Below, in pieces: positions 4,028 through 31,264 of a DNA stretch of 64,000 nt. Below the pieces are notes generated by a model. It saw only the letters and a list, made by a program, of their open reading frames with translations. It was not told where the DNA came from and did no database searches. Source of the DNA: a virus (lineage: Duplodnaviria; Heunggongvirae; Uroviricota; Caudoviricetes). How positions within the stretch are numbered: the first letter of the stretch is position 1; the number at the start of each line of letters is the position of its first letter. Made by a program: the position numbers and the translations under genes. Location of the stretch: the IMG/VR virus record IMGVR_UViG_3300042569_002502. One strand, 5' to 3'.

Positions 4028-4149
4028 TTTTTATCCTATTTTCACTATCCAATAGGTAAAGTTTTTAAATTGTTATATGAATGTTTTGCCACTCTGGTGT
4101 ATCTAATTCTGTAACATCAAATATCATAAACTGTCTACTCTCATATTAT

Positions 4150-9475: not shown

Positions 9476-9506
9476 AATTAAATATATTAAGGCGAGATTA
9501 AGATGC

Positions 9507-9514
9507 AAAGATAC
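9507..9514 (-). promoter_or_regulatory. Bacteroidetes-type -7 promoter element TATCTTTG (TAnnTTTG) upstream of the large fiber gene
   Basis: Exact TAnnTTTG on the minus strand, 32 nt upstream of the ATG at 9475, in the 70-nt gap after the 2150-aa gene. Confidence 0.3.
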
Positions 9515-15500: not shown

Positions 15501-16031
15501 CTCTTCTAATGTTTTAAAAATTGCTATATCAGGATCCCCATCTTCTGTAATATATTCAATAAAATAATCCCCAACTTCAGCTCCTAAAGCCATAGCAGAA
15601 TTTTCATCGGTTATTTGTTTAGGTTCAGAACTTTTACCATAAATATCAGAACCTATTTTATTTTTAGCAACATTAATCTCAATAGCATAACTATAATTAG
15701 CTAACATGTTGGTAATCAACTCATTACGATCTGTTGTATTAAATGATTTGAGAAGTTCTATTTGGTCTTTAGGAATACTAAGATCAGATTGTACCTTGTT
15801 CCAAAAAGCATCTCCTTTCACTCTATTCTTTTCTAAGGAAGAAAAAAGTTTAATAGCCTTCTCAGATTGTAAAGCATCTACAGATTTTAATCCAGCTTTA
15901 ACAATAGAACTTTTACTCTCACTTTCAGGAACATTTCCTTCATAAAGATCCCATAAAGCATAAGCAACATTCTCTCCTCTAGCTGCTACTAACAATTTCC
16001 AAGAATCAAGATTTATATTAGGACATGCCAT
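9579..16031 (-). CDS. giant virion (ejected cargo-type) protein, 2150 aa, with C-terminal hydrophobic segments
   Basis: Uninterrupted 6.45 kb ORF with ATG start. Extensive coiled-coil/charged regions. The C-terminal approx. 150 aa contain hydrophobic helices (LAILGALLGVMISLGF, FPAIGLIT). It begins 3 nt after the 4157-aa gene stop. Confidence 0.65.
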   Translation of the reverse strand: MACPNINLDSWKLLVAARGENVAYALWDLYEGNVPESESKSSIVKAGLKSVDALQSEKAIKLFSSLEKNRVKGDAFWNKVQSDLSIPKDQIELLKSFNTTDRNELITNMLANYSYAIEINVAKNKIGSDIYGKSSEPKQITDENSAMALGAEVGDYFIEYITEDGDPDIAIFKTLEEANRAFNTQRAANNSSVYSNLTVPGGTNYTENEIATPAITPSIKGHAQFATDQGIGWFRSDDSIVGIQNRKALPQEIEEVRDTEGAQAAKELEKNGIPGVGGTPTTTRRILEVQSDLFQKGRDSKVLSKKLDIKKVGDTFISNGEKFTVTNIDTDSNLYELITISNQEGKTATLRRSALEKRFDERGDNSSDNQFLQLLNKNSNWVTFFIKSILQDSAKKGYEKVLFPSGNTASKVEGHTTLEEFKKQKENRIKELEESSILKNKNVDGFYYIQRYLEDENGNEVLTWRKVSNETGREKTATKEEIESLKSKFSEETKNEINQLKKELEDVEKNGFGALKPIYNFYENTVKNILNKQYGKDNVKQITDEYGNTWNEVEIVPEREQKQILLQKEGMPASKASAETLSKVKEAAKKMGISIQQLSDYLKGNKDVTTKGINGLADLVRGIIAVAEGKEDVALTEEMVHVATAILEQMDPRLVTEMISKIDRFKIYKQVYDQYKDVYKLPNGKPDIRKIKKEAVDKLLVEVIINKAGATEAYPELMEEATQSLFRNFWNKILDLIRGVYRKSNISIFEEVGARVIEGEVGGTISDISEGGIFYQLSDAQKKVQEKIQETRNSINKVVSDEKSDEVLADSDESTNWYEISLPDGTKQKITKRVTDLVKEWYKKRFKDKKFTPEEKAFNEMKRKYGVEGHADFEEIHNRYYNKDGTKKTTPDPRPVKFNLPSEEMYNMLENYYVSLLQTLDKDALVFSEVIVYNPKDKRAGTIDFLAVDPSGKGHILDWKFMQINGEDVAWFKQGAFDIQLGTYKNILKDFYGIKEFGMNRAIPIAMDFGYKEKGNKSSGLELKGIAIGSIDKTKIQDLRLVPVSEQTESTGYEDLDNIIKKLNSMLKQIGKEEVTDDDERLFKIERLNTIRKAVRLLQGQNNIASLIDVVGIMREEGDQLLNDYNTIYKNRPASSNDSNNKELSDFAEKMRVHLRIIDVFENIGRDIGHLVYTKDMLENAKTEEEREDVARRKDIHDQLMAQSNAIYRSKEQLTKAAQDFADKHVGQRNLVFGLLSPEAVIKGLSSNFRGISELPSKALQLLYKVVRGAQGEASKASLERVQKLMDIRKKLAEQGGDLRTIVQQIYQKDDKGGIVNKLIHRYSRKFHEEVDAKAKEGGDKQWLLDNIDVEEYKKEANKRLEDQIKKIERQIYTSDKNENEAIRVKNIKEAQEMWDIDNKNFNGWNNYIIKRHPLPKWYSEEYKNILKNPILLELYNFIGSINEEAKEAGYITNKVMKTFLPFVRKGAAEELAWDHSISPLKNFSESLKMQTDDVGFGSFNELTGELENSVPKYYTYDFTRKDGVNDYSDVSEDLFKNMILYIQQMEKYKYLSAVEGQLQLVKTVEQFKGHLATDRSANVVKQGGKIIEIPGNEENTKMYDDFLRVLLYGQKYVLSDTDTPLNVGKVLNFVKNGVNTITGREVFKIDEEPSATSLVKTMDAANRAFQLKALGFEFISGAVNMFGGNIQVATQAGDYFKARDFLKNQAKLAVQRFDNEEDREIFVQLVNTFMPLKDDPSTDIYKYEAGMTALTRKNLGDMLMVFMRKPEQLIEKSIFVTLLENMMVDNGRIVNINDFVKNKYKNRYKSSSEYKQSKEAIKAEVEELKKTKSIAVTKKLVNGKLEIPGLDLSNQRELQRLTELTRRISRNATGGMSDGDINRMSMSVWTNSMMLFKSWIPKLADTRFSEFRKVSDDFSVTVDEDGVKGEKYDIGRIRLLAYVLGTSIRDKSANITNLIQMNDKGIALIDKMYEDFAEKYEKRTGETLNMTKEDFADMIRTNLRNEIKELAILGALLGVMISLGFMAPDDEEDKATKNFFRYSQRVVDKFVGELSFFYNPVNFESLLSGSMFPAIGLITDYTRFTSHFVREVTGFDITDPTLSAEEVRKKAMPIKYAAKALPVAKSALTYGAILNNEFAKEFDITIQKESSMK

Positions 16032-16034
16032 ATT

Positions 16035-19000
16035 TTAACATTTATTATTTTTAATTATTGTTCCTGCTTCAGCCAATGTGTAGCCCATGTCTACAAGCAT
16101 TTTTGTGTTTAATTGCTCAGATGAATATGTTTTTCCATCTTTAAGAGACACTGTTTTTTCAGTAGTTGTAGACTCCAAAGATACTAAATTTTCATCTAAA
16201 TATGATAAAATTTCATCATCTTCTTTTTCTTGTTCCACTTTTAAAAATCCATTATCTATCTTAGATTTTTTAGCTACATCATACATTTCTACAGCCCTGA
16301 AAGAGTCTCCCCAAGCATTAACCATTTTATAAATATATTCAGTAATAACAATATTTTGTCCATCTTTATTCATTGTATATTCATTAGTAAATGGTATATC
16401 TCCGCTATATATTTTTTTGAAAAGTCCTTTTTTAATATAAGAATAATCACCCTTCTTTCTCATAGCTTCTTTCTCATATTTATTTCCCACTTCCCATGTA
16501 AACACAACATAGTCAGAGTCTGCTTCCCTGGATTTTGTATTAAACTTAATCAATTGAGGAATATCTCCAGTTTCCATAGGTTTATTAAACCCAGATAAAT
16601 TTCTAAAAAAATCAAAATTTTTATATCTCCAATTACCAAATTGATCTTGTTTTTTAACTAGTCTTCTACTAGGAACAACATCTCCATCATTCCAATTATT
16701 TCTTTGAAAAACTCCTAATTTATAAAAATCATTAAGATTTGGAATTGTCTCAAGCTTTGATAGGGTCTTATTGTAGATTTCTTTAAAATCTTCATAAGGA
16801 ATAAGAGATGTAAATGATATTGGAGACCTATTTAATCCAGATTGCAAAACAGCGAGCCTAACTAAGTTTCCATATAAAGGACTTTTTATACCTTTAAAGT
16901 ATTGTTTTAGTTCTTCAAAAGCATAGATAATTTGATTTTGATCATACACTTTATTATCTCTACCAACAATCTTTAAATTGTTTGTTCCGTTTTCTAGTTT
17001 TTGAGAAAATACAGGAACAAGACTATTTATTAAAATATTATCTTTTAAAGGATGTTTGCTAGATTTTTTAACATCTACAATAAAATCTGACATTTGTTTA
17101 GCCACATTGTTATTTTCTAAAAGAATTCTTTGTACCATTGTATTAAGATCTCTATCATTCTGCACTGCCCAATCAAAAAGATCATTCACTGCCTTTTGAG
17201 AAATTTTAACAAAATCCCTATCCGATTCATTTATATACGGAAGTAACACTTTTTCCATAACTCCTCTAACATTAGTTTGGTCAGAAACAAGTATTGTAGA
17301 AAGAGCATTTCTTAATTTAAGCAATAAATCACTTAAATTTCCTATGAAAGAATTTTCTAATATATCATCTACAGAAGATATAATAGATGTTTTTGCTTTT
17401 TTAAGTTGTTCCATTTTCTTAAATACTAAAAATGGATCATTAAAAGAAGCTGTATCAAAATTAGAACCCTGTGTAACTAAGTATAGCTGATTAGCCATCT
17501 TAGCATACTTAACAAACTCAGATAGGATAAATCTTTGATCTGCTTTCTGCTCTGGAGATAAATTTTCTCCTTCTCCAATCATATCCCATAATTTACTCTT
17601 GCTAGGTATTTTAGTGGGCTTTGTAATAGATGAATCATATTTAGAAATAACATCTTCAAATATGTCCCCAATAAATAACCAAGAATACCCAGACCTTTCT
17701 ATGGATTTTAAATAATCTCTCACAATGGGTTGGTTCATGAAATAAGCAATAGTGTCGATTGGTACACCTATCTTAGCTAAAAACAACCATGTACTAGCTA
17801 CATTAGGAGTGGCTCCTAATTCCATAATCCAGGGTCCTTTAGATATATCCACATATCCATCAATAAACTGTCCATTTATATCTGATATATCTTGGCCTTC
17901 TGCATTTTCTATCATAGAAAGTGTAGGAACTTTTTCTCCATCCACTTCTATACTGTTATACTGTTCAAAGTTAATTTCTGCATCACCCAACCACTCTCTG
18001 TCAGCAGCATCCTGTATTGCTAATTTATTTTTATCTATGTAAATAGGAGATCTCTGATTTAATGAGTGATTAGTTTGACTTACAGCAGCAATACCAATAG
18101 CATATTTACCACTAACAAATGCTTGTCTAAGTCTTGACATAAACACCCTGTTTAGCATGTTTCCTGTAGAATCATAGTTAAAAGCCCCCACTCCTAATTT
18201 ATCAGAGATTTTTTTAGATAAATCTTTAAGTTGATCTGCGGAGTTTGGAGAAGTAAGTCTTTTGAAATTTTTAGGATGAGAAACAAGTTTTTCACAAGAC
18301 TCTATATATTCATTTTCTAAAGACTCTTTGTACATTTTGTCTTTAAACTCTTCTAATAAAATCTGCTGTACATCCCAATTAGTTAATTCAGAAAGTTTTT
18401 TACCAAGTTTTTCTAATCTTTTTATAAAAATTTCCTCAATATCAGCAACTAATAATTTACCGTCTTCAGTTTCTTTTTCAAACATTTGTTTAAAAATAGG
18501 AATCCATTTATTAGCTGTTTTGTCACTAGATATTCCCAAAGAAATATCACTGAATAAAGACTGTAAATCAGCTGTAGATATTTTTTTAGCTTCTGCTTTA
18601 TCTATTTTGCTTTGTAAAATATCAAAGAAAATATCTTCATATTTATTTTTGTTATTAGGATCTATACCAAAAAATGGTACAATCTCTATATTTCCTTTAG
18701 CATTTTTAAATACGTTTTTAAAGTATATAGAAAGTTTATCTATATCAAAGTCAGATCCCACTTTCTGAACCAATGCTGAGGGAATTACAACAGAGTCTCC
18801 AAATTCCTTAGGAAGAAATCTTTTAATTTTAAAAACATCAATAGAGTTTTGCTTTTGTGTAGGAATACGGTATGCAAGTCCAGATAGAATTTTTTGTCCT
18901 TCTGGAGTTTCATTTAAATATTTTAAAAGCTCTTCGTCAGACAAATCACTCTTAAACCATCTACCCACCATTATTTCACACACACGTTTACCATCCTCAT

Positions 19001-22000
19001 CCTTATAAAACTCAAGAGTGTCAGATGTATATCCTAGTTTTCCGTTAATTTCTCTTAATTCTGTTTTTGTAGATTCTAATAAAGCAGCAGGAATTTGTAC
19101 TTTTAATCCACCAGAAATTTTAGGAGAAATTACTTCCTTATCTGCTATGGAATATAAAATATTTCTTATTTGTTGGTAGGCAGGTGTGGCCTCTAATATT
19201 ACAGAACCTTGTGCATAATTTCTTACAGCCTCACTTATATTATCATTAACCTCTCTTTTTAATAACTCTTGTCTTAAAAACTCTGCAACTTTTTCAACAT
19301 TATCTGGTTCAATAACATATCCATCAGTAGTTTCTGTTATATGCAATTTATTCAATAAAGAGTTATATCCTTCTGTAGCAATAGCTTCTAAAAGATTTTG
19401 ATTGTTTTTTATTTCTTTATAAAGAGTAGATTCTTTTATTCTACCTTCTTCGTCTAATGCATACCAAGCTTTATACCTTTCTGGAAATGTTTTTGTTTCT
19501 TCAAAGTCTACAGGAACTCCTGCTTCCATATAATCCATAGTGATGAGTTTTGTCACCTGGGATCCTCTAGTTACCAAAGGAGTGTCTTTAGAAGGCACTT
19601 CAGATTGAACACTCATTATGTCAAAAGGAACATTGAACACTCCTTCAAACTCATTAGTGTTAAAACTACCATCCTCGTTATATACAGAATTAGTTTTTTC
19701 AGCTCCCACTTTTCTAGCACTCTTAAACACTACATAATCAATGTTTTCTTCCTGCATTTTATCATAAAGCTTTAATGCGTTGGAAGAAGCATTTATCTCA
19801 TACATCACTCTATATGATAATGGATATAATGCAAACTTGTCTAGCATTACATCATTGTAATTTTTACCATTATCTTTATTTCCAGCTACAATAGGTTTAA
19901 CTGGTGTATAAGCACTCTTTGCAGCAGGATTCTTATTAAGAAGCTTTTGTAACTCTTCCTTAGAGGCTCCTGATTTAGCAGCTTCTTCAAATTTAATATC
20001 AAACTTATATTGAAGCTCTTCGTTTTCATTCCATTCTCCAGAACGAATTCTAAAATTTCTATACGCTTTAAAAGAAATTATACCACTACCATCCGTTTCT
20101 TCATATTCTTTATATCCAGGAAGATCAATCACTCCTACAATATCAGCTAGTGTTGTGGTCTTAAAGTAATTTTTATTAAAATCTGTATACCCTAAATCTC
20201 CTTTTTTAAAGCCTTTATTCCAAACATTATTTAATAGTGAATTTATATTGTCTGATCCTAATAAACGTTGTCTAGGAGAGAGAAAGTTTTTAATACGTTT
20301 TAATTCATCGCTGTATTGATAAGGATCTGAATATAATAACTTATGAAGTTCTATATTGTTAATCATAAAGTTGATATTCAAAGCTGTCAACTCTCTGTTT
20401 AAATCATCAATATTTTCAAACACAGACTCTGAAAGTGCTATGTTTTCCACTTCCCAGCCTAAATCTGTTTTATTTATAATACCATAAGAAAGTAAATTAT
20501 TTCTAAATTTATTTACATCTTCCTCAATAAAACTCTTTAGAGCAGCATTAATTTTTGACTCATATTTTTTATAAACTTCTTCTGGAGTTCCAGTTTCTTT
20601 CACAATATCATTATGCAACTTCTCTCCAAGAATAGGTTTAAAGAATCTAAGATCTGTACTTTTTCTAGTTTTTGTCTCTTTTGTGTTTCTATTTACATCT
20701 CTAGATAATAGTAATTCTGAAATAAAATATCCTTTAAATATTTTATTAACATCTTCCATTCCTGTAGCTCTTAATCTTTTTACAGAAACATGATTACCCA
20801 TATATGCCATCCATTCCATAGAAGCATCTCCAGGGACAAGATTCATATAATATCCATTAAGATTTAAATTAATTTCTTGTATTAATCTTTCTCTATAGGT
20901 TAACTTAGAAGATTCTTTTTTCTTACCACTCTGTTCATTAATTGTACCATCTACATATCCTATAGATAAATAGTTTTCAATATCTTCTCTTTTTTCCCCT
21001 GTCTCTAAATTAAACATTTTGTTTAATATAACAGAATTCTTAACAAAAGAATCTGTTAATAAATACTGATATTGAGCGGGAACATCATTTAAATTGTTAA
21101 CCTGAGAAAGTACATCGTAAAGATCACTACCAGGATTGGTTCCTATAAAAGACTGCACTCTTTCTCCATTAAGATTGAAATATGTACTGTCAAATTCTGG
21201 AGTGGTAATTATTGCTTTTATTGTAGCTAGTTTTAATAGCTGGCCCTCAATATCTAACACCTTACCAGATATAGTGGCTATTTCTTTAGCTTGCTCAATA
21301 CTTGTTCTAATACCATCTACAGCTGTGTTAAATACTTTTAATTTATCACTGTTAAGAGATTTTAATTCTTCCTCTGTAAAAGATATTCCTAATTTTTCTA
21401 AAAACGCTATTCTTGCTGATGCACTTAAAAGAGTTTTAGGAACAGATTTAGGCTCTCCTTTAAATCTTCTAGTCTTATCATCATATACAAAATAAGAACT
21501 TTTCTTAGTTTTTATTGCATCAACTATTTGAGAAATAAAATCTGATCTTAATTGTCTTGCTGCAGAAGAAAGATTTGAATCTCCTATTACAACATCATCA
21601 TTAGAAAGAATAAACACTGCTTTTACATCAGCATTCATTTTCTTAAATGTTTTCCAGAATGAAGCAAGTAATTGGGCCTCATGTGGTTCTGTTAAATTAG
21701 AATAATCAATTCCTTTAACAGTTATAGCAGATTTAGTAAGTCTTTCATATAATGTTTTATAATTATTATCTTTTAAACCTAATTCTTTAAGTCCTTGTAA
21801 CATTTCTTCTATAGTCTTGGCACTATGAACTTGGTTCATTACTTTCATAAAAACCTCACTAGTAGGAATTAACTTAGCACCATTCACTGTAGAACGGTCC
21901 ATATTACCATCTCTATCCACTCTAGCAACAGTGGATAATAACATTTTTATAGCTGCATTAGCCTTTTTAAAATTGTCAATTTTTCTAGCATCTTGATAAT

Positions 22001-25000
22001 CTGATTTTCCAGAATTGTTCTCATCTGTTAATGTTGCATTATCATTCTCATCAAATTCTATTGAATATCCTCTTAAATATTCCTCGTGTTTAAATTTAAA
22101 CTCATCCCAATTATCTTCTACAGCCTTCCATAAAGCAAGAGATTTTTCTATGTGAGGAGCCCCTTGTTTTTCTGTAAATGTACCTTTCTCAATTAAAGCT
22201 TTTGTAGAACTTACAGTTTTAAGAATGTCTTTTTGAACTTGGTCTTTTAATTTTATATATAATTCCGTTTTGTTAATATTTGGAATAGTAAAAAAGCTTT
22301 TATTATCTCTGAAAATATTCTTTAAAGTGAGGTAGGTCATGTTTTGTATAACATCATGTCTTTCCTGACCATTCATTCCAATTATACTAAACTCTGCCCC
22401 AGCATTTGCAATAGCTTCTTCTATATCAATCACTCCTTCTTTAGCGAAAGAAAGTGCTGAGTGATATGGAGAATATTGTTTGTAATATCCATTTCCTATT
22501 TTAGAGAATAGTTTTTCTGTATTACTTCCAGCCTTATTTCCTGTAAAAAATTCCTTAATAAAACTAACGAGGTCTGCAAATAATTTTAATATAAATGGTC
22601 TTCCAGAAGTTGGTTTACCTGGAATTTTTTTATACATTACATAATCTCTAAACTCTTCTGCTAGTTGTTCTTTAGCTTCTTGATTAGTGGCCTCAGAATA
22701 TTTAACTTCTTTTCCTGTAGGTCTGTCTATAAAAGAACCTTTTCTAGCTTTAAACTCAGCTAATACATTAGCTTGTTCTTCAGCATCAGAAAACATTTTC
22801 CATACAGCTTCAAAAACCTCATGGTAAACAGTGCCCACTTCCGCATTCTCATATATGTATATAGCACCGTCTTGAAACATACCCCAAGCTTGTCTACCAT
22901 TAGTAGCTTGTATTACATTCTTCACTCTATATACAGGAACATTTGGAAAGTTTTCTTTTAACCACTTTTCCACCTTCTGCCAATTCTCTCCCTCAAATTT
23001 TTCTATTTCTTTAGCAATTTTCTCTCTAAACACAGGACCATCTTCATCAGAAGATTCCATCATTTGTCTTCTTATTTTGTCAAGATCTGACTCTGTCATT
23101 CCTTCAGATGCAATTTCTGTTTTAGCTTCCTCACTTATAATTTCTGCTGCTACAGGAGCTGTTTGTTCAGCCACTTTCTTTTTATATTCTTCTATCTGTG
23201 GAGCTAAAGTTTTTACAATTGATCCTGCAAAAGCATCTTTAATTTGTTCTTCTGGTGCGTTAAGATCAGCTATTGCTTTTTCGATACCATCTCCAGACAG
23301 TTCTCCTTGAAACACTCCTTTTATAGCATCATATGAAAAATTAATATTATATTTACCTAAAAGGGTAATGTTATTTTTTGCCTCTCCATCAAATGTATAG
23401 CCATCAACAACTATTTTAGCTGCTGGTGTAGGAGCTACAGGAGCTGCTGGGGCTGTTGGGGTTAGCACCTTCGGTGTTGTTACCACTGTTTTTGGAATAA
23501 CAAACTTATCCGCATTATCAGTGATTGTAAAATAAACCCCTTCTCTATTAACATCTTCCTCATTTTTTAAAGGACGAGCTATTGTTGTAAGAGGAATATT
23601 CTCTGCATTTCTTTTATTACCATCCGCATCTTTATTAGATAGTAGATAAGATTGGTAGTTAGGCCATGTTTTTATTTCTAAAGATCCATCTTTTTTAACA
23701 CCAATAATTTCAGAATAAGGTTCATTCCAAGATTTATTTATAATAGTGGCATTAACATTATTATACATGTCCTGTATAAGAGACATTAAATTATCTTGGT
23801 TTTCTTGAATGGATAATGGACCAAAAGGAATGTTTCCTCCTTTTCCAGATAAGAATAATTTTAATATTCCATCTGCATCTTTTTCAAACCATATACTGTT
23901 ATATCCTGGATTCTTTCTGTTACCATCAACCACTTTAGGAACTCCCCAATATACAACAGATTTGAGCCAATCTAATATAACTAAAGAATCTGCTGATTTA
24001 GCATTACCATCTTTTTCTACATTTCTAGAAAGTCTTAAAATCATATTATATATTAAAGAAGCTTCTTTCTCATTAAACTTTCTATTGTTTAGTTTAACAA
24101 GACCATTTGCTGTCTTTAATAATGGTCTACCTTTAGCATTAGTAAATGTAACGCTACCATTTTCTTCCGCACCTTCTGTAGTACGAAGAACAATTACATT
24201 ATTGTTTTCTAATCCTTTTGGAACAAGTCCAGCCTCTTCTACAGAGTTTTTAGCTCGGTAGTTAGTCTGTTCAACTCCTTTATCATCTGTATATTTTTCA
24301 TTTTGTAAAATACCAAATGAAGCGTCTATTCTATATTGTACAAGGTCAACAGTTGATAATATACCATCTCTCCATGTTTTATACTGCTCTATTAATGCCT
24401 TTTTAACATTATCTGGAGTGGTACTTCTAAACATAGAAGATGGCTTACCACTCTTACTATATTCAGCACTCCATTCTAATCCCTCATCAGGCATCACCTG
24501 ATATATTGCATTATCTAATTTATCTACTCCTTCAGGAATAACTTCTCCATTAACATCAACAAGTTCTCCATCTGTATTAACCATAACAAGAGCTATCACT
24601 CCTGCTTTTTGCTCTGGTGTGCCTTCTCCAAAAAGTCTATCTATTAATCCAGGTATAAGACTAGCTTGGTTGTTAATTGTAACTAATACACCACGGATAT
24701 TTGCTTTATTAGGAAGAGTGGGGAAATTGTTACCAAACTTATTAGCTCTTATATGATGAGGCTTGTCTGACTTTGAAGGCACCTTTGTACTAGTGACAAT
24801 AGAAATGTCATCCTTTTTAGCATCAGGCTCATAAGTTTCATCATACTGAAGAGTTTGTTGATCAGCTACCATTGTTCCTAAAATAGCTTGTTTAAACTCT
24901 TCATTTTTAGCCAGTCTAGCTTCCTGTTCTTTTTGTTGTTTATGTTTTTTAGCTACTTCCTCAAATGTATTTAAAATTAATTCTTTTGCTTTAATTTCTT

Positions 25001-28000
25001 TTTCTACCTCTTTAAGCTGATTTTGTAACCCCTCCATTTCTTTCCTAAGTTCTTCTAAAGATCTTTCATTAGGAATGACGTCAAGTTCATCTATATCAGC
25101 AATATCTCTTTCAAATTCAGAAAGATCTGATAATAGATTTGGGTTTGCCTGTAAGTAAGATTGATAATCTGGATAGACACCTTTAGCAGAAAGATCTTTA
25201 TTTAAAAACTCTACAAGTCCTAATGGTGTATATGGAAGATTTGGATATTTTGCTTCAAACTTTTTAATAAGATCTAATGCAAAATCAACAGCTGTTTTTA
25301 ATGCACCGTCCACTTGATCCATTAATTTAGACAAAGCATTAATTTGTTTTCCTACACTTTCTTGTAATAGGTTTAAATTTAAAGCTTGCTCATTAAGATC
25401 TTCTAATAAATCTTTTCCTTCCTCAGGAAACTCATCAATATTTTGAGCCATATCAGCTACATAAGACTGATTAAACTCTATCTCATCTCTTTCAGCTTCT
25501 AATGCTTCTATTTCTAAACGAAGGTCTTCCTTCATTCTAGAAAGTCTATTAGCAGCTTTAATTGCTTTATTTGTAGAAGATTTAAAATTGTTTTTCTTAG
25601 TGATAGCACCACTACTAATTTTTTCTTCTAATACTTTCATCTCCTCAACAATCCTATCCACTTGCTCTTTTTTCTGAGCAATAAGTGTATTAGTTTTGTC
25701 TAGCTTAGCAGAAAGATTGTCAAATAAATTAGTAAGTATTTCAAGTCTACTAGCTCTTCTTGCTTCTATTCTTGCGTCTCTTTCAGCAGCAAACTCTTCT
25801 TCTGATTTTTGTTGAACAGCTGTAAGAGTACCAAAAGCTTTTATCATTCCATGTTGGTAGCCTTCTTTAGCTTTAAAGTCTTGTCCTACAATTTCTTTTG
25901 TTCTTATTTTTCCTTTTGCATCTTTGTATACAAATAATAAAATTCCTTCTTTAGGAGAATATTGAAGTCTTCCTTTTGCAGGCTGTCCATTCACTTTAAT
26001 ACCGTAATGTTCATATACGGTATTAATATTATCCATGTAAAACTTAGCTTTTTTATTTTTTTCTGTATCACTCACCTTCCCCAACTTATAACTAGCCAGT
26101 TCTTCCTTAGATATATTTTTAATAATTCCTGTAGACCCTTTTATTCTTATTGTGCCATCCTCATTTTCACCAAGAATTGTTAACTTAGGAAAGTTATGAA
26201 CTTCTTTACCATCTTTACTATAAGAGACAACACTACCTAAATAATACTCTGTACCCACTTCAATATCTTCTTCCCCATCTTTTGTCTTAATTTTAACAAT
26301 CTGCTTTTCTTTAATTTTTGTATCAGGAGCAAATTCTTCTTCTTCCTCTTCTGTATATTTCTCTGGATTGTTTTTAATATCATTATATTCATCTAAAAAC
26401 TTAGCTCTACGTGCAGATAATTCAGCCACATCTTCTAAAGCTATTTTAAGATCTGCCACTTTTTCTGGTAATAAATTTTTACCAAGAGCATCAATTTCTG
26501 CCATAGCAGCATTAAAAGAATCACTACTTCCAGCTACAACATCATTAATAACTGTATCAACATCTATATTTATAGCCTCCAAAGAACCAGATAGTTGTGG
26601 TATTCTTTTATCATAATCTGCCACTTTAGTAGCAGCATAAATCATTTTATTTATTGTCTCTGGAGAGTATACAGGTTTACCATCTTTGGTGATAAGATTA
26701 CCATATCTTAAATTAATAGATTGGTATAAAGATTTTATGCTATCAGCAGTTTGTTCAAGATTTTCTATTCTCTGTAAATATTGCTCTCTAGTGTCTCCCT
26801 CTAATGCTTTACCCTCCGCCTTTAATTGTGCAAATCCTTCTTCAGTCATTGCTAATTTTCTATAATCTTCTATGTCAGAACGAACAAGATCCATTCTGCC
26901 ATATTTAATTCTAGGTGTTAGGTAGTTGATAATATAATCTTGTTCAAGATCTTTACTCTCTAAAACATCTCCTTGTCTTAAAGCTTTTTCTCTATCCTCT
27001 TGAATAGCAGTGCCTCTATTAACAGCAGATATTGTTTCCTTTGTAAAATCAGAGAATTTCCATTCATTGGCTTTTTTAATAAATTCTGCTGTATCTTTTG
27101 CTTTTTCTCTACTCTCTTGTATTTTCCCTTTAGCCATCATTAAGGCCCCAGATAAACCACCAATAAGGACATTTTCCATTCCCTCGTTAGTAGTGAGGGT
27201 TTGTTTAACTCCTTCTTTAAGACTATCAATAAAATCAGCTGAAGCTCCTCTGTATTTTTTATTATAATAATCTTGTGTGCCTGATTGAATAGCAAATTGT
27301 GCGCCTTCTTCAAAAGCTTCAGATATAGAAAATGTGTAAGGCCTTATATTATTTAATGTAGATAAAACTCTGTTTTTAAAGAATGAAGGGGCCTTTACTA
27401 AATTACCAGCAGCATCTTTAGTAACATCTGCCACTTCTTTTGTAAGACCATTAACAATCCCTTTTTCAGCCTTATACGAAGCTCCTAGTATTTTAGGAAA
27501 CTGAATATAGTTAGTAGCTGTTAATAGAGCAGTGTTAAGAAGGAAAGAAGATGTACCTACATTTTCTGCCTCATTATTAATTTTTTCAAGATCTTCACCT
27601 GTTGGAGCAAGTCCAAAGTTTTGTGCTTTATATTCCTCTATTTTCTTTTTTCTAAATTCATTAGAATTATTATAAGCTTCAAATCCTGCCTCTCCTGTTG
27701 TAGCAAGTCCTGCAACAACAGCTCTACCACCAGCATTAAGACTATTATATGTAGATAGGTATTTATCAGAAATACTTTTTATCTTACCAAACATGCTAGC
27801 TCCTTTATCAGCAGCAAGAAGAGCCTCTTCTGTAGCCACTAAAGCTTCTGCAGATTTACCTGCTGCAAATAGTTTTGATGTAAGAGGAAGAGCTTTTAAA
27901 ACAGAAGCATACACACCTCCAGATAAAGCAGCTCCTGCTGAAAATCCCATATTTTTAATAATGCCATCCCAGAAGAAATTAGCTGTAAACCATTTCTTAG

Positions 28001-28508
28001 GAGAGTACCAATCTGCGTCTTTTTCTTCTTTTGTATAATAGTTAGCCCATTTATCTTCAAGATCTTGATTAAATTCATCTAGACTTCTATTAAAATCATT
28101 ATCATAAAATGATGAAAACTTTCCTGTTTGGGCCCAATTAGCCACACCATTAACCAATCCAGCTGTAGACTGTAAAAATGTGGTTCCTGTTAAAGCAAGT
28201 CCTTTGCCTACACCATTAATCATTTTGTTTGTCCAAGCTTGTCCTTGGGCATATAACTCTTCATTATCAACATTCCTAAATGTTTTAGGGTATCTCTTGG
28301 AAGTTTCTTGGGTGGAATAAGCATATTTGCTTGTATCTTCCATACCGAAAGCTTCCATTCTAGCTCTCTGAAGATCTTCTAAAGGATTGTTTCTATTCTC
28401 TCCACCAGACCCACTAGGTCCCACTCCTTGAGGAATACCCTCATCCAATCTAGCTAGACCTTCATTTTTAATATTATTTGCCCAATCTAAGAAGTTTTGA
28501 TCACTCAT
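16035..28508 (-). CDS. giant virion protein (4157 aa) containing an RNAP beta-prime-like DFDID double-psi beta-barrel motif; candidate virion-packaged RNA polymerase fusion
   Basis: 12.47 kb ORF with ATG start. Motif VGSDFDIDKLSIY (DFDID codons at 18738-18752, residues about 3253-3257) parallels bacterial NADFDGDQMAVH. Size and genomic position match the giant RNAP-containing genes of crAss-like phages. Confidence 0.75.
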   Translation of the reverse strand: MSDQNFLDWANNIKNEGLARLDEGIPQGVGPSGSGGENRNNPLEDLQRARMEAFGMEDTSKYAYSTQETSKRYPKTFRNVDNEELYAQGQAWTNKMINGVGKGLALTGTTFLQSTAGLVNGVANWAQTGKFSSFYDNDFNRSLDEFNQDLEDKWANYYTKEEKDADWYSPKKWFTANFFWDGIIKNMGFSAGAALSGGVYASVLKALPLTSKLFAAGKSAEALVATEEALLAADKGASMFGKIKSISDKYLSTYNSLNAGGRAVVAGLATTGEAGFEAYNNSNEFRKKKIEEYKAQNFGLAPTGEDLEKINNEAENVGTSSFLLNTALLTATNYIQFPKILGASYKAEKGIVNGLTKEVADVTKDAAGNLVKAPSFFKNRVLSTLNNIRPYTFSISEAFEEGAQFAIQSGTQDYYNKKYRGASADFIDSLKEGVKQTLTTNEGMENVLIGGLSGALMMAKGKIQESREKAKDTAEFIKKANEWKFSDFTKETISAVNRGTAIQEDREKALRQGDVLESKDLEQDYIINYLTPRIKYGRMDLVRSDIEDYRKLAMTEEGFAQLKAEGKALEGDTREQYLQRIENLEQTADSIKSLYQSINLRYGNLITKDGKPVYSPETINKMIYAATKVADYDKRIPQLSGSLEAINIDVDTVINDVVAGSSDSFNAAMAEIDALGKNLLPEKVADLKIALEDVAELSARRAKFLDEYNDIKNNPEKYTEEEEEEFAPDTKIKEKQIVKIKTKDGEEDIEVGTEYYLGSVVSYSKDGKEVHNFPKLTILGENEDGTIRIKGSTGIIKNISKEELASYKLGKVSDTEKNKKAKFYMDNINTVYEHYGIKVNGQPAKGRLQYSPKEGILLFVYKDAKGKIRTKEIVGQDFKAKEGYQHGMIKAFGTLTAVQQKSEEEFAAERDARIEARRASRLEILTNLFDNLSAKLDKTNTLIAQKKEQVDRIVEEMKVLEEKISSGAITKKNNFKSSTNKAIKAANRLSRMKEDLRLEIEALEAERDEIEFNQSYVADMAQNIDEFPEEGKDLLEDLNEQALNLNLLQESVGKQINALSKLMDQVDGALKTAVDFALDLIKKFEAKYPNLPYTPLGLVEFLNKDLSAKGVYPDYQSYLQANPNLLSDLSEFERDIADIDELDVIPNERSLEELRKEMEGLQNQLKEVEKEIKAKELILNTFEEVAKKHKQQKEQEARLAKNEEFKQAILGTMVADQQTLQYDETYEPDAKKDDISIVTSTKVPSKSDKPHHIRANKFGNNFPTLPNKANIRGVLVTINNQASLIPGLIDRLFGEGTPEQKAGVIALVMVNTDGELVDVNGEVIPEGVDKLDNAIYQVMPDEGLEWSAEYSKSGKPSSMFRSTTPDNVKKALIEQYKTWRDGILSTVDLVQYRIDASFGILQNEKYTDDKGVEQTNYRAKNSVEEAGLVPKGLENNNVIVLRTTEGAEENGSVTFTNAKGRPLLKTANGLVKLNNRKFNEKEASLIYNMILRLSRNVEKDGNAKSADSLVILDWLKSVVYWGVPKVVDGNRKNPGYNSIWFEKDADGILKLFLSGKGGNIPFGPLSIQENQDNLMSLIQDMYNNVNATIINKSWNEPYSEIIGVKKDGSLEIKTWPNYQSYLLSNKDADGNKRNAENIPLTTIARPLKNEEDVNREGVYFTITDNADKFVIPKTVVTTPKVLTPTAPAAPVAPTPAAKIVVDGYTFDGEAKNNITLLGKYNINFSYDAIKGVFQGELSGDGIEKAIADLNAPEEQIKDAFAGSIVKTLAPQIEEYKKKVAEQTAPVAAEIISEEAKTEIASEGMTESDLDKIRRQMMESSDEDGPVFREKIAKEIEKFEGENWQKVEKWLKENFPNVPVYRVKNVIQATNGRQAWGMFQDGAIYIYENAEVGTVYHEVFEAVWKMFSDAEEQANVLAEFKARKGSFIDRPTGKEVKYSEATNQEAKEQLAEEFRDYVMYKKIPGKPTSGRPFILKLFADLVSFIKEFFTGNKAGSNTEKLFSKIGNGYYKQYSPYHSALSFAKEGVIDIEEAIANAGAEFSIIGMNGQERHDVIQNMTYLTLKNIFRDNKSFFTIPNINKTELYIKLKDQVQKDILKTVSSTKALIEKGTFTEKQGAPHIEKSLALWKAVEDNWDEFKFKHEEYLRGYSIEFDENDNATLTDENNSGKSDYQDARKIDNFKKANAAIKMLLSTVARVDRDGNMDRSTVNGAKLIPTSEVFMKVMNQVHSAKTIEEMLQGLKELGLKDNNYKTLYERLTKSAITVKGIDYSNLTEPHEAQLLASFWKTFKKMNADVKAVFILSNDDVVIGDSNLSSAARQLRSDFISQIVDAIKTKKSSYFVYDDKTRRFKGEPKSVPKTLLSASARIAFLEKLGISFTEEELKSLNSDKLKVFNTAVDGIRTSIEQAKEIATISGKVLDIEGQLLKLATIKAIITTPEFDSTYFNLNGERVQSFIGTNPGSDLYDVLSQVNNLNDVPAQYQYLLTDSFVKNSVILNKMFNLETGEKREDIENYLSIGYVDGTINEQSGKKKESSKLTYRERLIQEINLNLNGYYMNLVPGDASMEWMAYMGNHVSVKRLRATGMEDVNKIFKGYFISELLLSRDVNRNTKETKTRKSTDLRFFKPILGEKLHNDIVKETGTPEEVYKKYESKINAALKSFIEEDVNKFRNNLLSYGIINKTDLGWEVENIALSESVFENIDDLNRELTALNINFMINNIELHKLLYSDPYQYSDELKRIKNFLSPRQRLLGSDNINSLLNNVWNKGFKKGDLGYTDFNKNYFKTTTLADIVGVIDLPGYKEYEETDGSGIISFKAYRNFRIRSGEWNENEELQYKFDIKFEEAAKSGASKEELQKLLNKNPAAKSAYTPVKPIVAGNKDNGKNYNDVMLDKFALYPLSYRVMYEINASSNALKLYDKMQEENIDYVVFKSARKVGAEKTNSVYNEDGSFNTNEFEGVFNVPFDIMSVQSEVPSKDTPLVTRGSQVTKLITMDYMEAGVPVDFEETKTFPERYKAWYALDEEGRIKESTLYKEIKNNQNLLEAIATEGYNSLLNKLHITETTDGYVIEPDNVEKVAEFLRQELLKREVNDNISEAVRNYAQGSVILEATPAYQQIRNILYSIADKEVISPKISGGLKVQIPAALLESTKTELREINGKLGYTSDTLEFYKDEDGKRVCEIMVGRWFKSDLSDEELLKYLNETPEGQKILSGLAYRIPTQKQNSIDVFKIKRFLPKEFGDSVVIPSALVQKVGSDFDIDKLSIYFKNVFKNAKGNIEIVPFFGIDPNNKNKYEDIFFDILQSKIDKAEAKKISTADLQSLFSDISLGISSDKTANKWIPIFKQMFEKETEDGKLLVADIEEIFIKRLEKLGKKLSELTNWDVQQILLEEFKDKMYKESLENEYIESCEKLVSHPKNFKRLTSPNSADQLKDLSKKISDKLGVGAFNYDSTGNMLNRVFMSRLRQAFVSGKYAIGIAAVSQTNHSLNQRSPIYIDKNKLAIQDAADREWLGDAEINFEQYNSIEVDGEKVPTLSMIENAEGQDISDINGQFIDGYVDISKGPWIMELGATPNVASTWLFLAKIGVPIDTIAYFMNQPIVRDYLKSIERSGYSWLFIGDIFEDVISKYDSSITKPTKIPSKSKLWDMIGEGENLSPEQKADQRFILSEFVKYAKMANQLYLVTQGSNFDTASFNDPFLVFKKMEQLKKAKTSIISSVDDILENSFIGNLSDLLLKLRNALSTILVSDQTNVRGVMEKVLLPYINESDRDFVKISQKAVNDLFDWAVQNDRDLNTMVQRILLENNNVAKQMSDFIVDVKKSSKHPLKDNILINSLVPVFSQKLENGTNNLKIVGRDNKVYDQNQIIYAFEELKQYFKGIKSPLYGNLVRLAVLQSGLNRSPISFTSLIPYEDFKEIYNKTLSKLETIPNLNDFYKLGVFQRNNWNDGDVVPSRRLVKKQDQFGNWRYKNFDFFRNLSGFNKPMETGDIPQLIKFNTKSREADSDYVVFTWEVGNKYEKEAMRKKGDYSYIKKGLFKKIYSGDIPFTNEYTMNKDGQNIVITEYIYKMVNAWGDSFRAVEMYDVAKKSKIDNGFLKVEQEKEDDEILSYLDENLVSLESTTTEKTVSLKDGKTYSSEQLNTKMLVDMGYTLAEAGTIIKNNKC

Positions 28509-31264
28509 TTTTTAAAGTTTAATCCACTAAGTGTTTTAATTGTTTGAAGTCTACCTGGAGTTAAGCTATTTATAAAAGACTGTGCTGCATCAGCAGATGG
28601 ATATGCAACAGGGTATATATCTCCTGGATTTTTATCAGCAATACCTCTTACATTACCTTCTCCATCTTTTATATAAAAGTAAATATTATGTTGACCAAGA
28701 TCATTAACTTTTATATCTGCTCCTAAAATATCTGTTTCTTGTCTTTGATGAAAGAATGATGGTGGATAATAAGCACCTGTATATGCAACAGGGTTGTTTG
28801 GATCTCCTGTTATAGAATTTGTTGTTCTGTTGTTTTCACTCCATGCAATTTTTCTATTAACATCTGAAACAGGGGCAGGAAGATTAATAACTGCTCCTTT
28901 TATATAATTTGCTGATCTTTTATCAATAGGTAATTGTTGTACTAAAGTGTTTCCATCATAAAGGTCTAATGTAAAAGTTTCTCCATAACTTCCAGGAGTT
29001 CCTCTATCAACACCAATAGAAACATTATACTTGTCTCTATCTTTTCCTGCTAAAAAGTTAGTAAATTTGTCAACATCTATTGTTCCTTTATAATTATCAA
29101 TCACTTCATTAAGTCGTTGATTGACAGATTTAATTTGGGGCTCCTTAGCATCCTCAGGATATAACGAAACAACTAGAGGCTCATTGCCTAACATTTTTTG
29201 TTTTAACACTTTTGCTTTAGCAGATAAAACATTTTGACCTACACTAGATGTAATTAATTTACTAGTATTAAAAATCCTTTCTATCCCTTCTTCACTAACC
29301 CCCGCATCTTTTGCATAAAGTCTAACAACAGGAGAACCAATTAAACCAGGTATTCTATACGCTTGGCTACCAAATTTTTTTTCTAATTCTTCTTTAGCCT
29401 GTTTAGCAAATGCAGAATATTCCTGATTTTTTAAAAAATCATTATTATAAACCAAACTAGCATTAAGAATATCTTTAGGTGTTATTTGAAAATTAAAATG
29501 TTTTTTCTCTTGAAAAGGCATCCTAGTTCCTCCTAATAAAACATCATCTTCACTTAATGATATATTAAAAGAAGGTAGGCCTTTCCCTAATTTAGTAAAA
29601 TCTAAATTTTCTCCAGAACCTGCACTTAAAACATCGGGATGTTTATTCAAGTCTTTCACTTCATTTGAATAATCACTTAAAGCTCTTTGATTAGCTTCTG
29701 CTACAGGTAATTGTGTAAGAAGAGGTGTATAATATGGATTTTTGGGATTTTTTTGAATATCATCTTTAGCCCTATCATAAGTCCTATCTATATATCCAGG
29801 AGCATTTTTTTCCCACTCAGTAATATTTTTTCTTATATCTTCATCAGAAACAGATTTACCATTTGCAAAATTTATTGCTTTAACATAATTAAAGACAAAT
29901 TGATCTTTTGTTTTCTTAGCACTTTCTTCTATTTTTTGTCCTTTTTCTATCCAATTAGAAAAAACTTCTACATCATTTAATGATTTTGTTAAATAGTCTG
30001 AACCAGGGGTTAAAGGTTTATCTGGATTATTAGGATCGTTTTTCCATTTTTCTTTATCTAAAGCAAGTTGTTGTTTAGAAATATCTATTCTAGACCATCC
30101 CTGTTTAATATTTTGTTGGTCTGCCCACCAATCTCTTTCATCTTTAATACGTTGTCTTTCAGCTTTCCAAGGAGCACTTTCAACATATTTTCTACTTATT
30201 GTTTCTGTTGTATAAGCTTCTGTGAATTTATTTTTTAATCCTTGTTCGTACACTAATGATTTCCATGTATCAAGATCACCCACTTGTCTGGCTCTCTGTA
30301 TTTTTTCATCGCCATATTGTTTTAAAGTGGAAATATCATTATCTGTTTTGTCTATAAGACTTTGTATTAATTTTTTCTTTTCAGGATCTGTTTCAGAAGC
30401 TCCTTTAGATAGAAGATCTAATCTCTTAGATTCTAAAATAGAAACTCCTTTGTTCTTTTCTTCCTCATATTGGCGAACAAAATCATCTAATTTATTATAT
30501 CCTCTATAATTATAAACACCACGCATAGCCATTTCTTGCTTAGCTTCTGGTCTACTCAAAACAGTGTCAATAGCTGCAGCAATTTTTTCACTGAACTTCC
30601 CTTGTTTTATTTCTTCTACAGCATATTCAGAAAGTATAGGAGCTCCTGCTTTATCGTATAATATTTTACCAGCAGGATCTGTTTTAAATACCTGCTGTGC
30701 TTCATATTTACTATCCCCTACAGCCTTTACAGCCTCTATAAGATTTTTTTCAATATCCCAAGAAGGTGTATATTGCCCTGAAAATTTTATTGGTTTTCCA
30801 GACTGATCTTTTAAATTGGGGTTTGATAAATAAGCATTCCTTTTAAGGTCATAATAATATCTTGCTTGTGGGGTTAGTTTACCAGCTTTTTCATCAGCTT
30901 CCATTTGTTTGTTCTGTTCTCTGTCATTAGCTGTTGAATATACAGCTGCTTGAACAAATGGATCTTTAACAATTTGTGTAGCCATTCCCCCTACAGAATT
31001 AACCAATTGTTGGTTAGAAAAATCCCCCGAAGCTACGGTTCTTAATTTTCCACCAAGTTCATTTAACTTAGACTTTAAATGTTCTTTATCTACATCCCTA
31101 GAAACGTCCATACCAGCAATATTATCAATATATCCCTGGATTTTTTGTACTCCTTGGTCATATTGTTGCTGTTTAGCCATGCCCACTTTAACCATAGCAT
31201 CAACAGGAAGTTGTTGCACATAGGGGTTAAATGGTTGTATCTGTGTATCGGTAAATGAGGCCAT
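28505..31264 (-). CDS. large virion protein (919 aa), function unknown
   Basis: ATG start. ATGA overlap with the 4157-aa gene. No recognisable catalytic motif. Confidence 0.6.
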   Translation of the reverse strand: MASFTDTQIQPFNPYVQQLPVDAMVKVGMAKQQQYDQGVQKIQGYIDNIAGMDVSRDVDKEHLKSKLNELGGKLRTVASGDFSNQQLVNSVGGMATQIVKDPFVQAAVYSTANDREQNKQMEADEKAGKLTPQARYYYDLKRNAYLSNPNLKDQSGKPIKFSGQYTPSWDIEKNLIEAVKAVGDSKYEAQQVFKTDPAGKILYDKAGAPILSEYAVEEIKQGKFSEKIAAAIDTVLSRPEAKQEMAMRGVYNYRGYNKLDDFVRQYEEEKNKGVSILESKRLDLLSKGASETDPEKKKLIQSLIDKTDNDISTLKQYGDEKIQRARQVGDLDTWKSLVYEQGLKNKFTEAYTTETISRKYVESAPWKAERQRIKDERDWWADQQNIKQGWSRIDISKQQLALDKEKWKNDPNNPDKPLTPGSDYLTKSLNDVEVFSNWIEKGQKIEESAKKTKDQFVFNYVKAINFANGKSVSDEDIRKNITEWEKNAPGYIDRTYDRAKDDIQKNPKNPYYTPLLTQLPVAEANQRALSDYSNEVKDLNKHPDVLSAGSGENLDFTKLGKGLPSFNISLSEDDVLLGGTRMPFQEKKHFNFQITPKDILNASLVYNNDFLKNQEYSAFAKQAKEELEKKFGSQAYRIPGLIGSPVVRLYAKDAGVSEEGIERIFNTSKLITSSVGQNVLSAKAKVLKQKMLGNEPLVVSLYPEDAKEPQIKSVNQRLNEVIDNYKGTIDVDKFTNFLAGKDRDKYNVSIGVDRGTPGSYGETFTLDLYDGNTLVQQLPIDKRSANYIKGAVINLPAPVSDVNRKIAWSENNRTTNSITGDPNNPVAYTGAYYPPSFFHQRQETDILGADIKVNDLGQHNIYFYIKDGEGNVRGIADKNPGDIYPVAYPSADAAQSFINSLTPGRLQTIKTLSGLNFKK

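Follow-up and report, generated by a model that had tools for sequence, protein, structure and literature searches.

What does a single open reading frame (ORF) of more than four thousand codons encode in the genome of a tailed virus, and does it hold one protein or two? The question is raised by the window analysed here, a stretch of 64,000 nucleotides (nt) from the IMG/VR record IMGVR_UViG_3300042569_002502 (Caudoviricetes). In it, a minus-strand ORF of 4157 amino acids (aa) runs from an ATG start to a stop codon at 16035-16037. A preliminary description of the window had reported this giant ORF at the same positions, and had read it as a fusion of an RNA polymerase (RNAP)-like polypeptide with another polypeptide of the size of a phage cargo protein. 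Both the ORF and the fusion are borne out. With a probability that we put at about 0.9, on the strength of sequence homology and predicted structure, the giant ORF encodes the virion RNAP of a crAss-like phage made as one polypeptide with a cargo protein of the type of gp67 of Cellulophaga phage phi14:2 and gp47 of crAss001. It would be a typical member of a large crAss-like clade in which the RNAP is fused to a gp67-type cargo protein.

16035..28508, minus strand: giant ORF, predicted gp67/gp47-like cargo module plus gp66/gp50-like virion RNAP (4157 aa, uninterrupted)

The DFDID motif and homology to phage RNA polymerases

The translation of the giant ORF contains ...VQKVGSDFDIDKLSIY..., and the peptide GSDFDIDKLSIY is found in the same product. 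The preliminary description had pointed to a DFDID motif at 18738-18752 as the Mg-binding loop of a beta-prime-type virion RNAP, and had compared it to the same five residues in phi14:2 gp66 (about 2180 aa). The codons lie exactly there, as residues 3253-3257, and DFDID is the sole D.D.D in the protein. From the composition of the 4157 aa, chance would give about 1.1 occurrences of D.D.D, 0.009 of DFD[IVG]D and 0.0035 of DFDID. Because about one D.D.D is expected anyway, the motif by itself is weak to moderate evidence, suggestive but not decisive. It could be a coincidence in a structural or ejection protein, or a remnant in a degenerate pseudo-enzyme, and such a reading could also draw on the blank Pfam and PHROGs scans and on the fourth motif position, which is Ile and not the universal Gly.

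The enzyme to compare with is well characterized. Gp66 of phi14:2 is a 2180-residue, Mg-dependent, virion-packaged RNAP, in agreement with the preliminary description; changing any Asp of its 1361-DFDID-1365 abolishes RNA synthesis, the fourth motif position is Ile or Val in all crAss-like phages, and residues 1095-1238 form a connector (Drobysheva et al., bioRxiv 10.1101/2020.03.07.982082). We searched residues 2000-4157 of the window protein by tblastn against 50,697 phage records (2.3 Gb). All of the 110 records matched were crAss-like, among them phi14:2 g066, 'Catalytic RNA polymerase subunit' (expectation value, E, 2e-17), and crAss001 gp50, 'putative RNA polymerase' (E 9e-13); a 700-residue core query matched 111 records, again all crAss-like. 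Pairwise blastp aligned window residues 2658-3760 with gp66 residues 817-1788 (E ~1e-25), with an identity of only ~21% over the core. In this alignment D3253, D3255 and D3257 stand opposite gp66 D1361, D1363 and D1365, and gp66 residue 1238, where the connector ends, corresponds to window residue 3136. Since DFDID lies inside a 1100-residue alignment to gp66, it goes beyond what chance would explain.

16038..22376, minus strand: residues 2045-4157, predicted virion RNAP module, equivalent to the whole of phi14:2 gp66
18738..18752, minus strand: residues 3253-3257, DFDID, predicted Mg-binding catalytic aspartates (gp66 alignment and conservation)
18060..18152, minus strand: residues 3453-3483, counterpart of the gp66 bridge helix (1529-1559) by blastp landmark mapping; helical in the predicted model
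17775..17927, minus strand: residues 3528-3578, counterpart of the gp66 trigger loop (1598-1636) by blastp landmark mapping

The motif is also conserved in homologues. Fifty aligned sequences, 31-62% identical, all have G-S-D-F-D-I-D-K and also agree at many positions of the strands flanking it, and the conserved context reads YRIPTQKQNSID...GDSVV...GSDFDIDK. When 1.84 billion cluster representatives were searched exhaustively with phmmer, there were 1895 matches at E up to 1e-3, and those of at least 3500 aa among the best 150 are referred to below as the giant homologues (n=120). D[FY]D[IV]D is present in 118 of these 120 (DFDID in 108, DFDVD in 8, DYDID in 2). The assignment of residues ~2045-4157 as a homologue of phi14:2 gp66 and crAss001 gp50 is essentially right, as judged from these comparisons and from the model described below.

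The polymerase homologues P0006, P0018, P0023, P0024, P0026, P0044, P0053, P0057 and P0077 carry additional Pfam domains, namely PF08719 (DUF1768/NADAR-like), PF00300 (histidine phosphatase) or PF25176. The projected ends of these homologues reach past the C-terminus of the window protein, so the extra domains are C-terminal additions that it lacks.

Predicted structure of the polymerase module

An AlphaFold2 model of residues 2600-3780 had a mean predicted local distance difference test (pLDDT) of 83.9 and a predicted template modelling score of 0.85. A double-psi beta-barrel (DPBB) fold is predicted around the motif, and a second, beta-like barrel, which the preliminary description had suggested looking for N-terminal to it, is seen in the model together with a helical connector. 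The first barrel is the strand cluster at positions 273-381 of the modelled segment, within the gp66-aligned region.

19569..19895, minus strand: residues ~2872-2980, predicted first (beta-like) barrel, N-terminal to the connector (AlphaFold strand cluster; approximate limits)
19128..19487, minus strand: residues ~3008-3127, predicted helical connector between the barrels (AlphaFold helices, segment 409-528)
18681..19121, minus strand: residues ~3130-3276, predicted second (beta-prime-like) barrel with the catalytic loop (strand cluster, segment 531-677)

In the 50-sequence alignment dozens of invariant residues are concentrated in the two barrels, those of the first including P273, G277, K292, Y326, K334 and G336 in segment numbering. 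The model thus appears to hold the gp66 fold, with two barrels in one chain, a connector of ~120-140 residues, a bridge helix and a trigger loop. Foldseek against the PDB returned 6vr4_A, which is gp66, at E 5.3e-29 (probability 1.00, template modelling score 0.65, 1251 columns). The runner-up was QDE-1 (7y7q, E 0.011), and beta-prime chains were weak (E >0.2). Of two AlphaFold models (pLDDT 84 and 79), both had 6VR4 as their sole strong structural match, and QDE-1 ranked second for one of them.

Two other classes of polymerase were rejected. The T7-like right-hand RNAP of the phage N4 type is ruled out by the score of the N4 mini-vRNAP, 3c46_A (E 0.5, probability 0.06). Multisubunit RNAP has beta as a separate subunit, and the fourth motif position of its beta-prime loop, NADFDGDQM, is Gly; in the window protein this Gly is replaced by Ile and both barrels are in one chain.

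A coincidental or degenerate DFDID is, in our judgement, very improbable. The motif is invariant and lies within ~1100 residues homologous to an active enzyme that also has Ile at the fourth position. In addition, the predicted fold matches 6VR4 and QDE-1, and the invariant residues cluster in both barrels.

The N-terminal cargo module

Residues 1 to ~2000 are, by sequence comparison, homologous to proteins that are separate elsewhere, namely the cargo proteins phi14:2 gp67 and crAss001 gp47. The former is a virion protein of phi14:2 by mass spectrometry (Drobysheva et al., bioRxiv 10.1101/2020.03.07.982082), and the crAss001 capsid carries gp47, gp49 and gp50 as cargo (PMC10172136). By blastp, residues 46-745 matched crAss001 gp47 residues 53-847 (E 6.5e-35) and phi14:2 gp67 residues 45-416 (E 4e-10); tblastn of the N-terminal half found crAss001 gp47 as well. 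The gp67 gene lies directly upstream of g066 in phi14:2, and the two products together measure 1797 + 2180 = 3977 aa, near the 4157 aa of the window protein. With gp67/gp47 matches in its N-terminal part and gp66/gp50 matches in its C-terminal part, the giant ORF therefore reads as a gp67/gp47-like protein plus a gp66/gp50-like one, as the preliminary description had supposed from size.

26274..28373, minus strand: residues 46-745, conserved N-terminal domain of the gp47/gp67 cargo family (blastp)
23073..26273, minus strand: residues 746-1812, poorly conserved middle, E/K/Q-rich (composition scan)
22524..23072, minus strand: residues 1813-1995, HEVFE domain, possibly a zincin-like metal site, fold unconfirmed (motif alignment)
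22386..22469, minus strand: residues 2014-2041, predicted disordered linker (AlphaFold model 2, pLDDT <50, segment 225-252)

The middle region, which has an Ala/Pro-rich stretch near residue 1650, is conserved among closer relatives only. The domain that follows it matches crAss001 gp47 residues 2069-2236. Its HEVFE (residues 1896-1900, nt 22809-22823) aligns to HEAFH of crAss001 gp47 and HESFH of cr108_1, and H1896, E1897 and the downstream E1947 and E1951 are invariant. At the fifth position of this HExx[H/E] motif, 81 of the 120 giant homologues have E and 35 have H, and only 3 have N or T. This choice between E and H looks like retention of a metal ligand. Residues 1813-1995 possibly form a zincin-like metal site. 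A canonical zincin metallopeptidase is not supported, the motif being HEVFE and not HExxH, and no protease family or fold was detected for residues 1813-1995.

The linker sits where separate-gene relatives have the boundary between the gp67-like and the gp66-like genes. In one of these (L008), the RNAP gene has a projected start at ~residue 1985 of the window protein and is aligned from residue 2045.

Parts of the N-terminal domain also recur outside the crAss-like phages. Residues ~50-220 (window ~27850-28360) are found in structural proteins of the non-crAss Cellulophaga phages phi4:1 and phi17:2 (145 kb) and in 'csAssE-Sib' (151 kb), and residues 86-613 match a hypothetical protein of Leptolyngbya phage Lbo-JY46 (125 kb).

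Is the fusion real?

An error of assembly or sequencing could in principle have fused two neighbouring genes. Three relatives (L008, L006 and L010) each show two ORFs, and in a word-indexed homologue search every match was 2180 aa or shorter. The impression of length given by that search is misleading, because most of its short matches end at contig ends or scaffold gaps. In the exhaustive search, the 120 giant homologues among the best 150 of the 1895 matches measure 3500-5167 aa (median 4365), with the polymerase core at ~residues 2600-4000. Two independent IMG/VR contigs without N runs hold the gene as one uninterrupted ORF, and DFDID and HEVFE are present in both. They are L012 (IMGVR_UViG_3300017917_001220; 4414 aa, 93-96% nucleotide identity to the window) and L013 (a 99.7-kb contig; 4809 aa, ~50% amino-acid identity to the window protein). 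The window also has neither the 'MxxCPN' head nor the Cys pair found at the boundary of separate genes, which argues that the boundary is absent and not merely read through.

There is precedent as well. The RefSeq phage cr108_1 has the same fused order, with a gp47-like N-terminus, a HESFH domain and a polymerase, and therefore provides a deposited example of the fusion. A group I intron (Rfam RF00028, 80 bits, E 1e-20) interrupts its ~3760-aa fused polymerase gene between GSD and YDIDK, at L005 20444-20762 (NC_055878/MT774385), and the gene is annotated as two hypothetical proteins, gp_22606 and gp_22607. Fusion of these proteins has been stated for some crAss-like phages (Drobysheva et al., bioRxiv 10.1101/2020.03.07.982082), and giant multidomain proteins of the transcription block, with introns or frameshifts within DxDxD, have been described (Yutin et al. 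2021). A search of IAS virus for the 'single huge polyprotein' that Drobysheva et al. cite showed separate genes there. On the basis of the L012 and L013 ORFs, the 120 giants among the best 150 matches, cr108_1 and the published statement, the fusion is genuine, widespread and already known, and it is dominant in the clade of the window protein. An artefact is refuted as far as sequence data allow, and we regard its probability as practically negligible.

The relatives with two ORFs differ in where they are split. In L008, products of 2110 and 2155 aa abut by 1 nt (L008 10001), with the boundary at ~residue 1985 of the window protein. The L006 products measure 2413 and 1872 aa; here the frame shifts by -1 at GTAAAAACG (L006 9890-9905), at ~residue 2297 and inside conserved sequence. 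The L010 products measure 2821 and 1852 aa, and the frame shifts by +1 at ~residue 2325, with a restart at TAAATG (L010 9995-10030). A further relative, L007, is open throughout except for a 100-N scaffold gap (9736-9835) at window residues 2320-2443. When all matches were mapped onto the window protein, many homologue fragments were found to span residues 1985-2045. A programmed -1 frameshift at L006 is not supported, as GTAAAAACG fails the X XXY YYZ slippery heptamer; an indel in the A5 run may explain the frame change. Both this split and that of L010, near residue 2300, may be real, may be errors, or may be translated by frameshifting. The occurrence of fused and separate forms with a shifting boundary shows that the two modules tolerate either state.

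L012 has an insertion of ~217 aa at window residues 1683-1697. Its protein is 91% identical to the window protein over residues 1698-4157 and 70% identical over residues 58-1682; the divergence is mosaic, with the cargo module evolving faster than the polymerase module.

The neighbouring genes

The preliminary description also placed three more giant ORFs beside the fusion, as a 26-kb block specifying an ejected transcription machine. All three exist, and the block of large ORFs covers 9579-35517 (~25.9 kb). The 2150-aa ORF is an orthologue of a known RNAP-associated protein; the 919-aa and 1388-aa ORFs are tied to the cargo proteins gp46 and gp45 solely via gene order, with no detectable similarity.

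9579..16031, minus strand: 2150-aa ORF, orthologue of phi14:2 gp65 / crAss001 gp49 (RNAP-associated cargo), by a chain of blastp matches
28505..31264, minus strand: 919-aa ORF, in the position of crAss001 gp46 / phi14:2 gp68 (cargo protein 2), by gene order only
31351..35517, minus strand: 1388-aa ORF, in the position of crAss001 gp45 (cargo protein 1), by gene order only

The blastp chain leads from the 2150-aa ORF to cr108_1 gp_22608, from there to gp49 and from gp49 to gp65. The same ORF is 47-52% identical to the gene downstream of the RNAP in L006-L008, and the window order gp67-like, gp66-like, gp65-like is that of phi14:2. The 919-aa ORF lies upstream of the giant ORF, whose start it overlaps in ATGA, and is homologous to the gene at the same position in L006 and L008; neither the PHROGs scan nor pairwise blastp detected similarity to gp46 or gp68. 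The 1388-aa ORF contains no Cys and has a Gly-rich hydrophobic stretch near residue 672. Pfam and PHROGs scans of the neighbours gave a sub-threshold HTH_3 in the 2150-aa ORF and tail-protein matches in a 1315-aa ORF.

The remaining window is a crAss-type structural module, with a large terminase, portal, major capsid protein, a 2229-aa muzzle-type protein and tail fibres. A marine origin of the phage and a host among the Bacteroidota are both probable.

Some observations on these genes stand apart. Directly downstream of the cargo block (window 1610-9508) are tail-fibre-type genes, including the 1315-aa ORF, which has a minor-tail-protein match, two paralogous ~235-aa ORFs, and an 805-aa ORF with a C-terminus of the long-tail-fibre distal type. 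The 2150-aa ORF has a strongly hydrophobic segment at residues 2007-2025, near its C-terminus, and its residues 42-562 are unrelated to the corresponding residues of L006. A hydrophobicity scan of the giant ORF found no transmembrane helices.

Proposed function and possible processing

In the explanation that we prefer, a virion RNAP made as one chain with a cargo protein, the order of modules would be the N-terminal domain (46-745), the variable middle, the HExx[H/E] domain (1813-1995), the linker (2014-2041) and the gp66-type polymerase (2045-4157). By analogy with phi14:2 and crAss001, the ORF would be expressed at middle or late times by the host RNAP. The protein would then be stored in the cargo zone of the capsid alongside other cargo proteins, and would pass through the tail, at least partly unfolded, ahead of or with the DNA. 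Inside the cell it would transcribe the early genes of the phage without the host polymerase. Presence of the RNAP in virions, its ejection, and Mg-dependent, rifampicin-resistant early transcription are known for phi14:2 only (Drobysheva et al., bioRxiv 10.1101/2020.03.07.982082).

Several points weigh against this explanation. Pfam and PHROGs scans gave no match for the giant ORF, and a phmmer search of the whole 4157-aa protein against PDB sequences returned noise only, for example actin at E 0.03. Because these searches were blank, the polymerase assignment rests on pairwise and tblastn homology at 21-24% identity and on predicted structure. The limits of the barrels were taken from the predicted model and the gp66 alignment, without residue-level superposition. 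Furthermore, the possible source of a protease is weak, with HEVFE in the giant ORF and a gp65-like ORF that has no HExxH.

The last point concerns a variant of the same explanation with the same identity for the protein, in which the 4157-aa chain is a polyprotein precursor. It would be cut at or near the linker at ~2014-2041 into a gp67-like protein and a gp66-sized polymerase, and the adjacent HExx[H/E] domain might do so in cis. Fused forms have been called 'likely cleaved' (Drobysheva et al., bioRxiv 10.1101/2020.03.07.982082). The low-confidence linker falls exactly at the canonical gene boundary, just downstream of the metal-site-like domain with its four invariant residues, and the fifth motif position is His or Glu, both metal ligands, in 116 of the 120 homologues. 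However, the canonical HExxH is absent from the window protein, its domain 1813-1995 resembles no detected protease family or fold, and the same domain is kept in a separate-gene relative, as crAss001 gp47, where there is nothing to cut. The 2150-aa gp65-like ORF likewise does not have the HExxH of phi14:2 gp65 (HEIMH at 245) and of L006 (HELTH at 368). We regard cleavage as possible but rather doubtful.

Terminal cysteines of the cargo proteins

The cargo proteins of the window contain 4 Cys in 8614 residues, compared to 32 in the 2229 residues of the muzzle-type protein, and the position of the few that exist follows a rule. The giant ORF ends in Cys and has its first Cys at residue 3177, with no Cys pair at the internal junction; the absence of this pair is general among the fused ORFs.

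16038..16040, minus strand: Cys4157, final residue of the giant ORF (C-terminal Cys conserved)

A Cys is found within the last 9 residues in 117 of the 120 giant homologues, with unrelated tail sequences, and 44 have no other Cys. The 2150-aa gp65-like ORF has its sole Cys at position 3 (nt 16023-16025), as part of the head motif MACPNINLDSWKLLVAARGE... Of 101 gp65-like homologues, 94 carry a Cys at one of positions 1-8, the exceptions looking N-terminally truncated, and 92 have exactly one Cys in ~2050 residues. Among the phi14:2 proteins, gp67 and gp65 contain a single Cys each, as the last residue of gp67 and as C3 of gp65, and gp66 contains two, C3 and C2179. The same rule holds in crAss001, IAS virus, L006-L009, L012-L014 and cr108_1, and the separate-gene polymerases P0225, P0288 and P0297 have two Cys only, both terminal. 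The pattern is not an artefact of gene junctions at the nucleotide level, since crAss001 gp47, on the opposite strand to gp50, still ends in Cys. We found no mention of the pattern in the two key papers on these proteins or in a literature search.

We tentatively suggest, as a somewhat unlikely reading of this sequence pattern, that the cargo proteins are joined head to tail by disulfides, from the C-end of gp67 to the N-end of gp66 and from the C-end of gp66 to the N-end of gp65. A single covalent thread would then leave the capsid in fixed order and dissociate in the reducing cytoplasm, and gene fusion would be a hard-wired first link, with a peptide bond replacing a disulfide. Intermolecular disulfides are documented elsewhere in the crAss001 virion (Bayfield et al.). 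Alternatively, the terminal thiols may serve other roles, such as portal or tail anchoring or metal binding.

The ends themselves show some regularities. The 2150-aa ORF begins with MACPNINLDSWKLLVAARGENVAYALWDLYEGNVPESE, and the heads of gp65-like proteins (window 15915-16031, first 39 residues) follow M-x(1-2)-CPNxNLxxWxxLVxxRGExxAYxLWDxYxGNVPESE. The polymerase tail of the giant ORF is ...MGYTLAEAGTIIKNNKC. In L008 the polymerase and the gp65-like protein share a ~40-residue head, MxxCPNxxLxxW...GE..AY.LW (10001-10120 and 16468-16590), and the tails of the gp67-like protein and the polymerase are alike, ...EQ..EI...KCKG. The shared heads and tails are consistent with cognate docking of tail to head.

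Implications

For annotation, a 12.5-kb gene that is blank in Pfam and PHROGs is now firmly identified and divided into domains. Single chains of 4000-5000 residues, which join the polymerase to the gp67-type cargo protein, are the normal form in a large and mostly marine branch of the crAss-like phages. Together with the genes that are split near residue 1985 or near residue 2300, the fused genes constitute a natural experiment on the physical linkage that is required in an ejected transcription machinery. The fusion itself is already known. The terminal Cys are the part most worth following, and this lead may be new. If the disulfide links were true, they would offer a simple, testable model both for the ordered exit of giant unfolded proteins from the capsid and for their release inside the cell.

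Comparison with known systems

The virion RNAP of phage N4 (Schitoviridae) resembles the window protein as a giant polymerase that is stored in the capsid, ejected, and transcribes early genes; its T7-like single-subunit fold is unrelated. In Thermus phage P23-45, too, a two-barrel RNAP of the virion is part of a giant structural protein, but there the polymerase is the N-terminal part of the tape measure protein and sequence similarity is not detectable. Neurospora QDE-1 also has both barrels in one chain, with no detectable sequence similarity and with other partner modules. Phage cr108_1 (Pipoluvirus rarus, NC_055878) differs in being a gut phage with an intron in the catalytic motif, at ~24% similarity to the window protein.

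Phi14:2 gp67 and crAss001 gp47 ('putative RNA-polymerase subunit') share the domain of residues 46-745. Gp47 has in addition an HExxH-type domain homologous to residues 1813-1995, and gp67 has the position directly upstream of the polymerase. Unlike the window module, both are free-standing proteins, of 1797 and 2341 aa respectively, that end in Cys. In crAss001, gp47 and gp50 are moreover on opposite strands, and the motif is HEAFH compared to HEVFE in the window. Phi14:2 gp66 (PDB 6VR4) agrees with the polymerase module residue for residue in DFDID, and has counterparts of the two barrels, helical connector, bridge helix and trigger loop, a gp65-type gene following it and a C-terminal Cys. 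It differs in being a separate 2180-aa protein with its own N-terminus, MAC..., whereas the window module continues from the gp67-like part without a start, an N-terminal Cys or a gene boundary.

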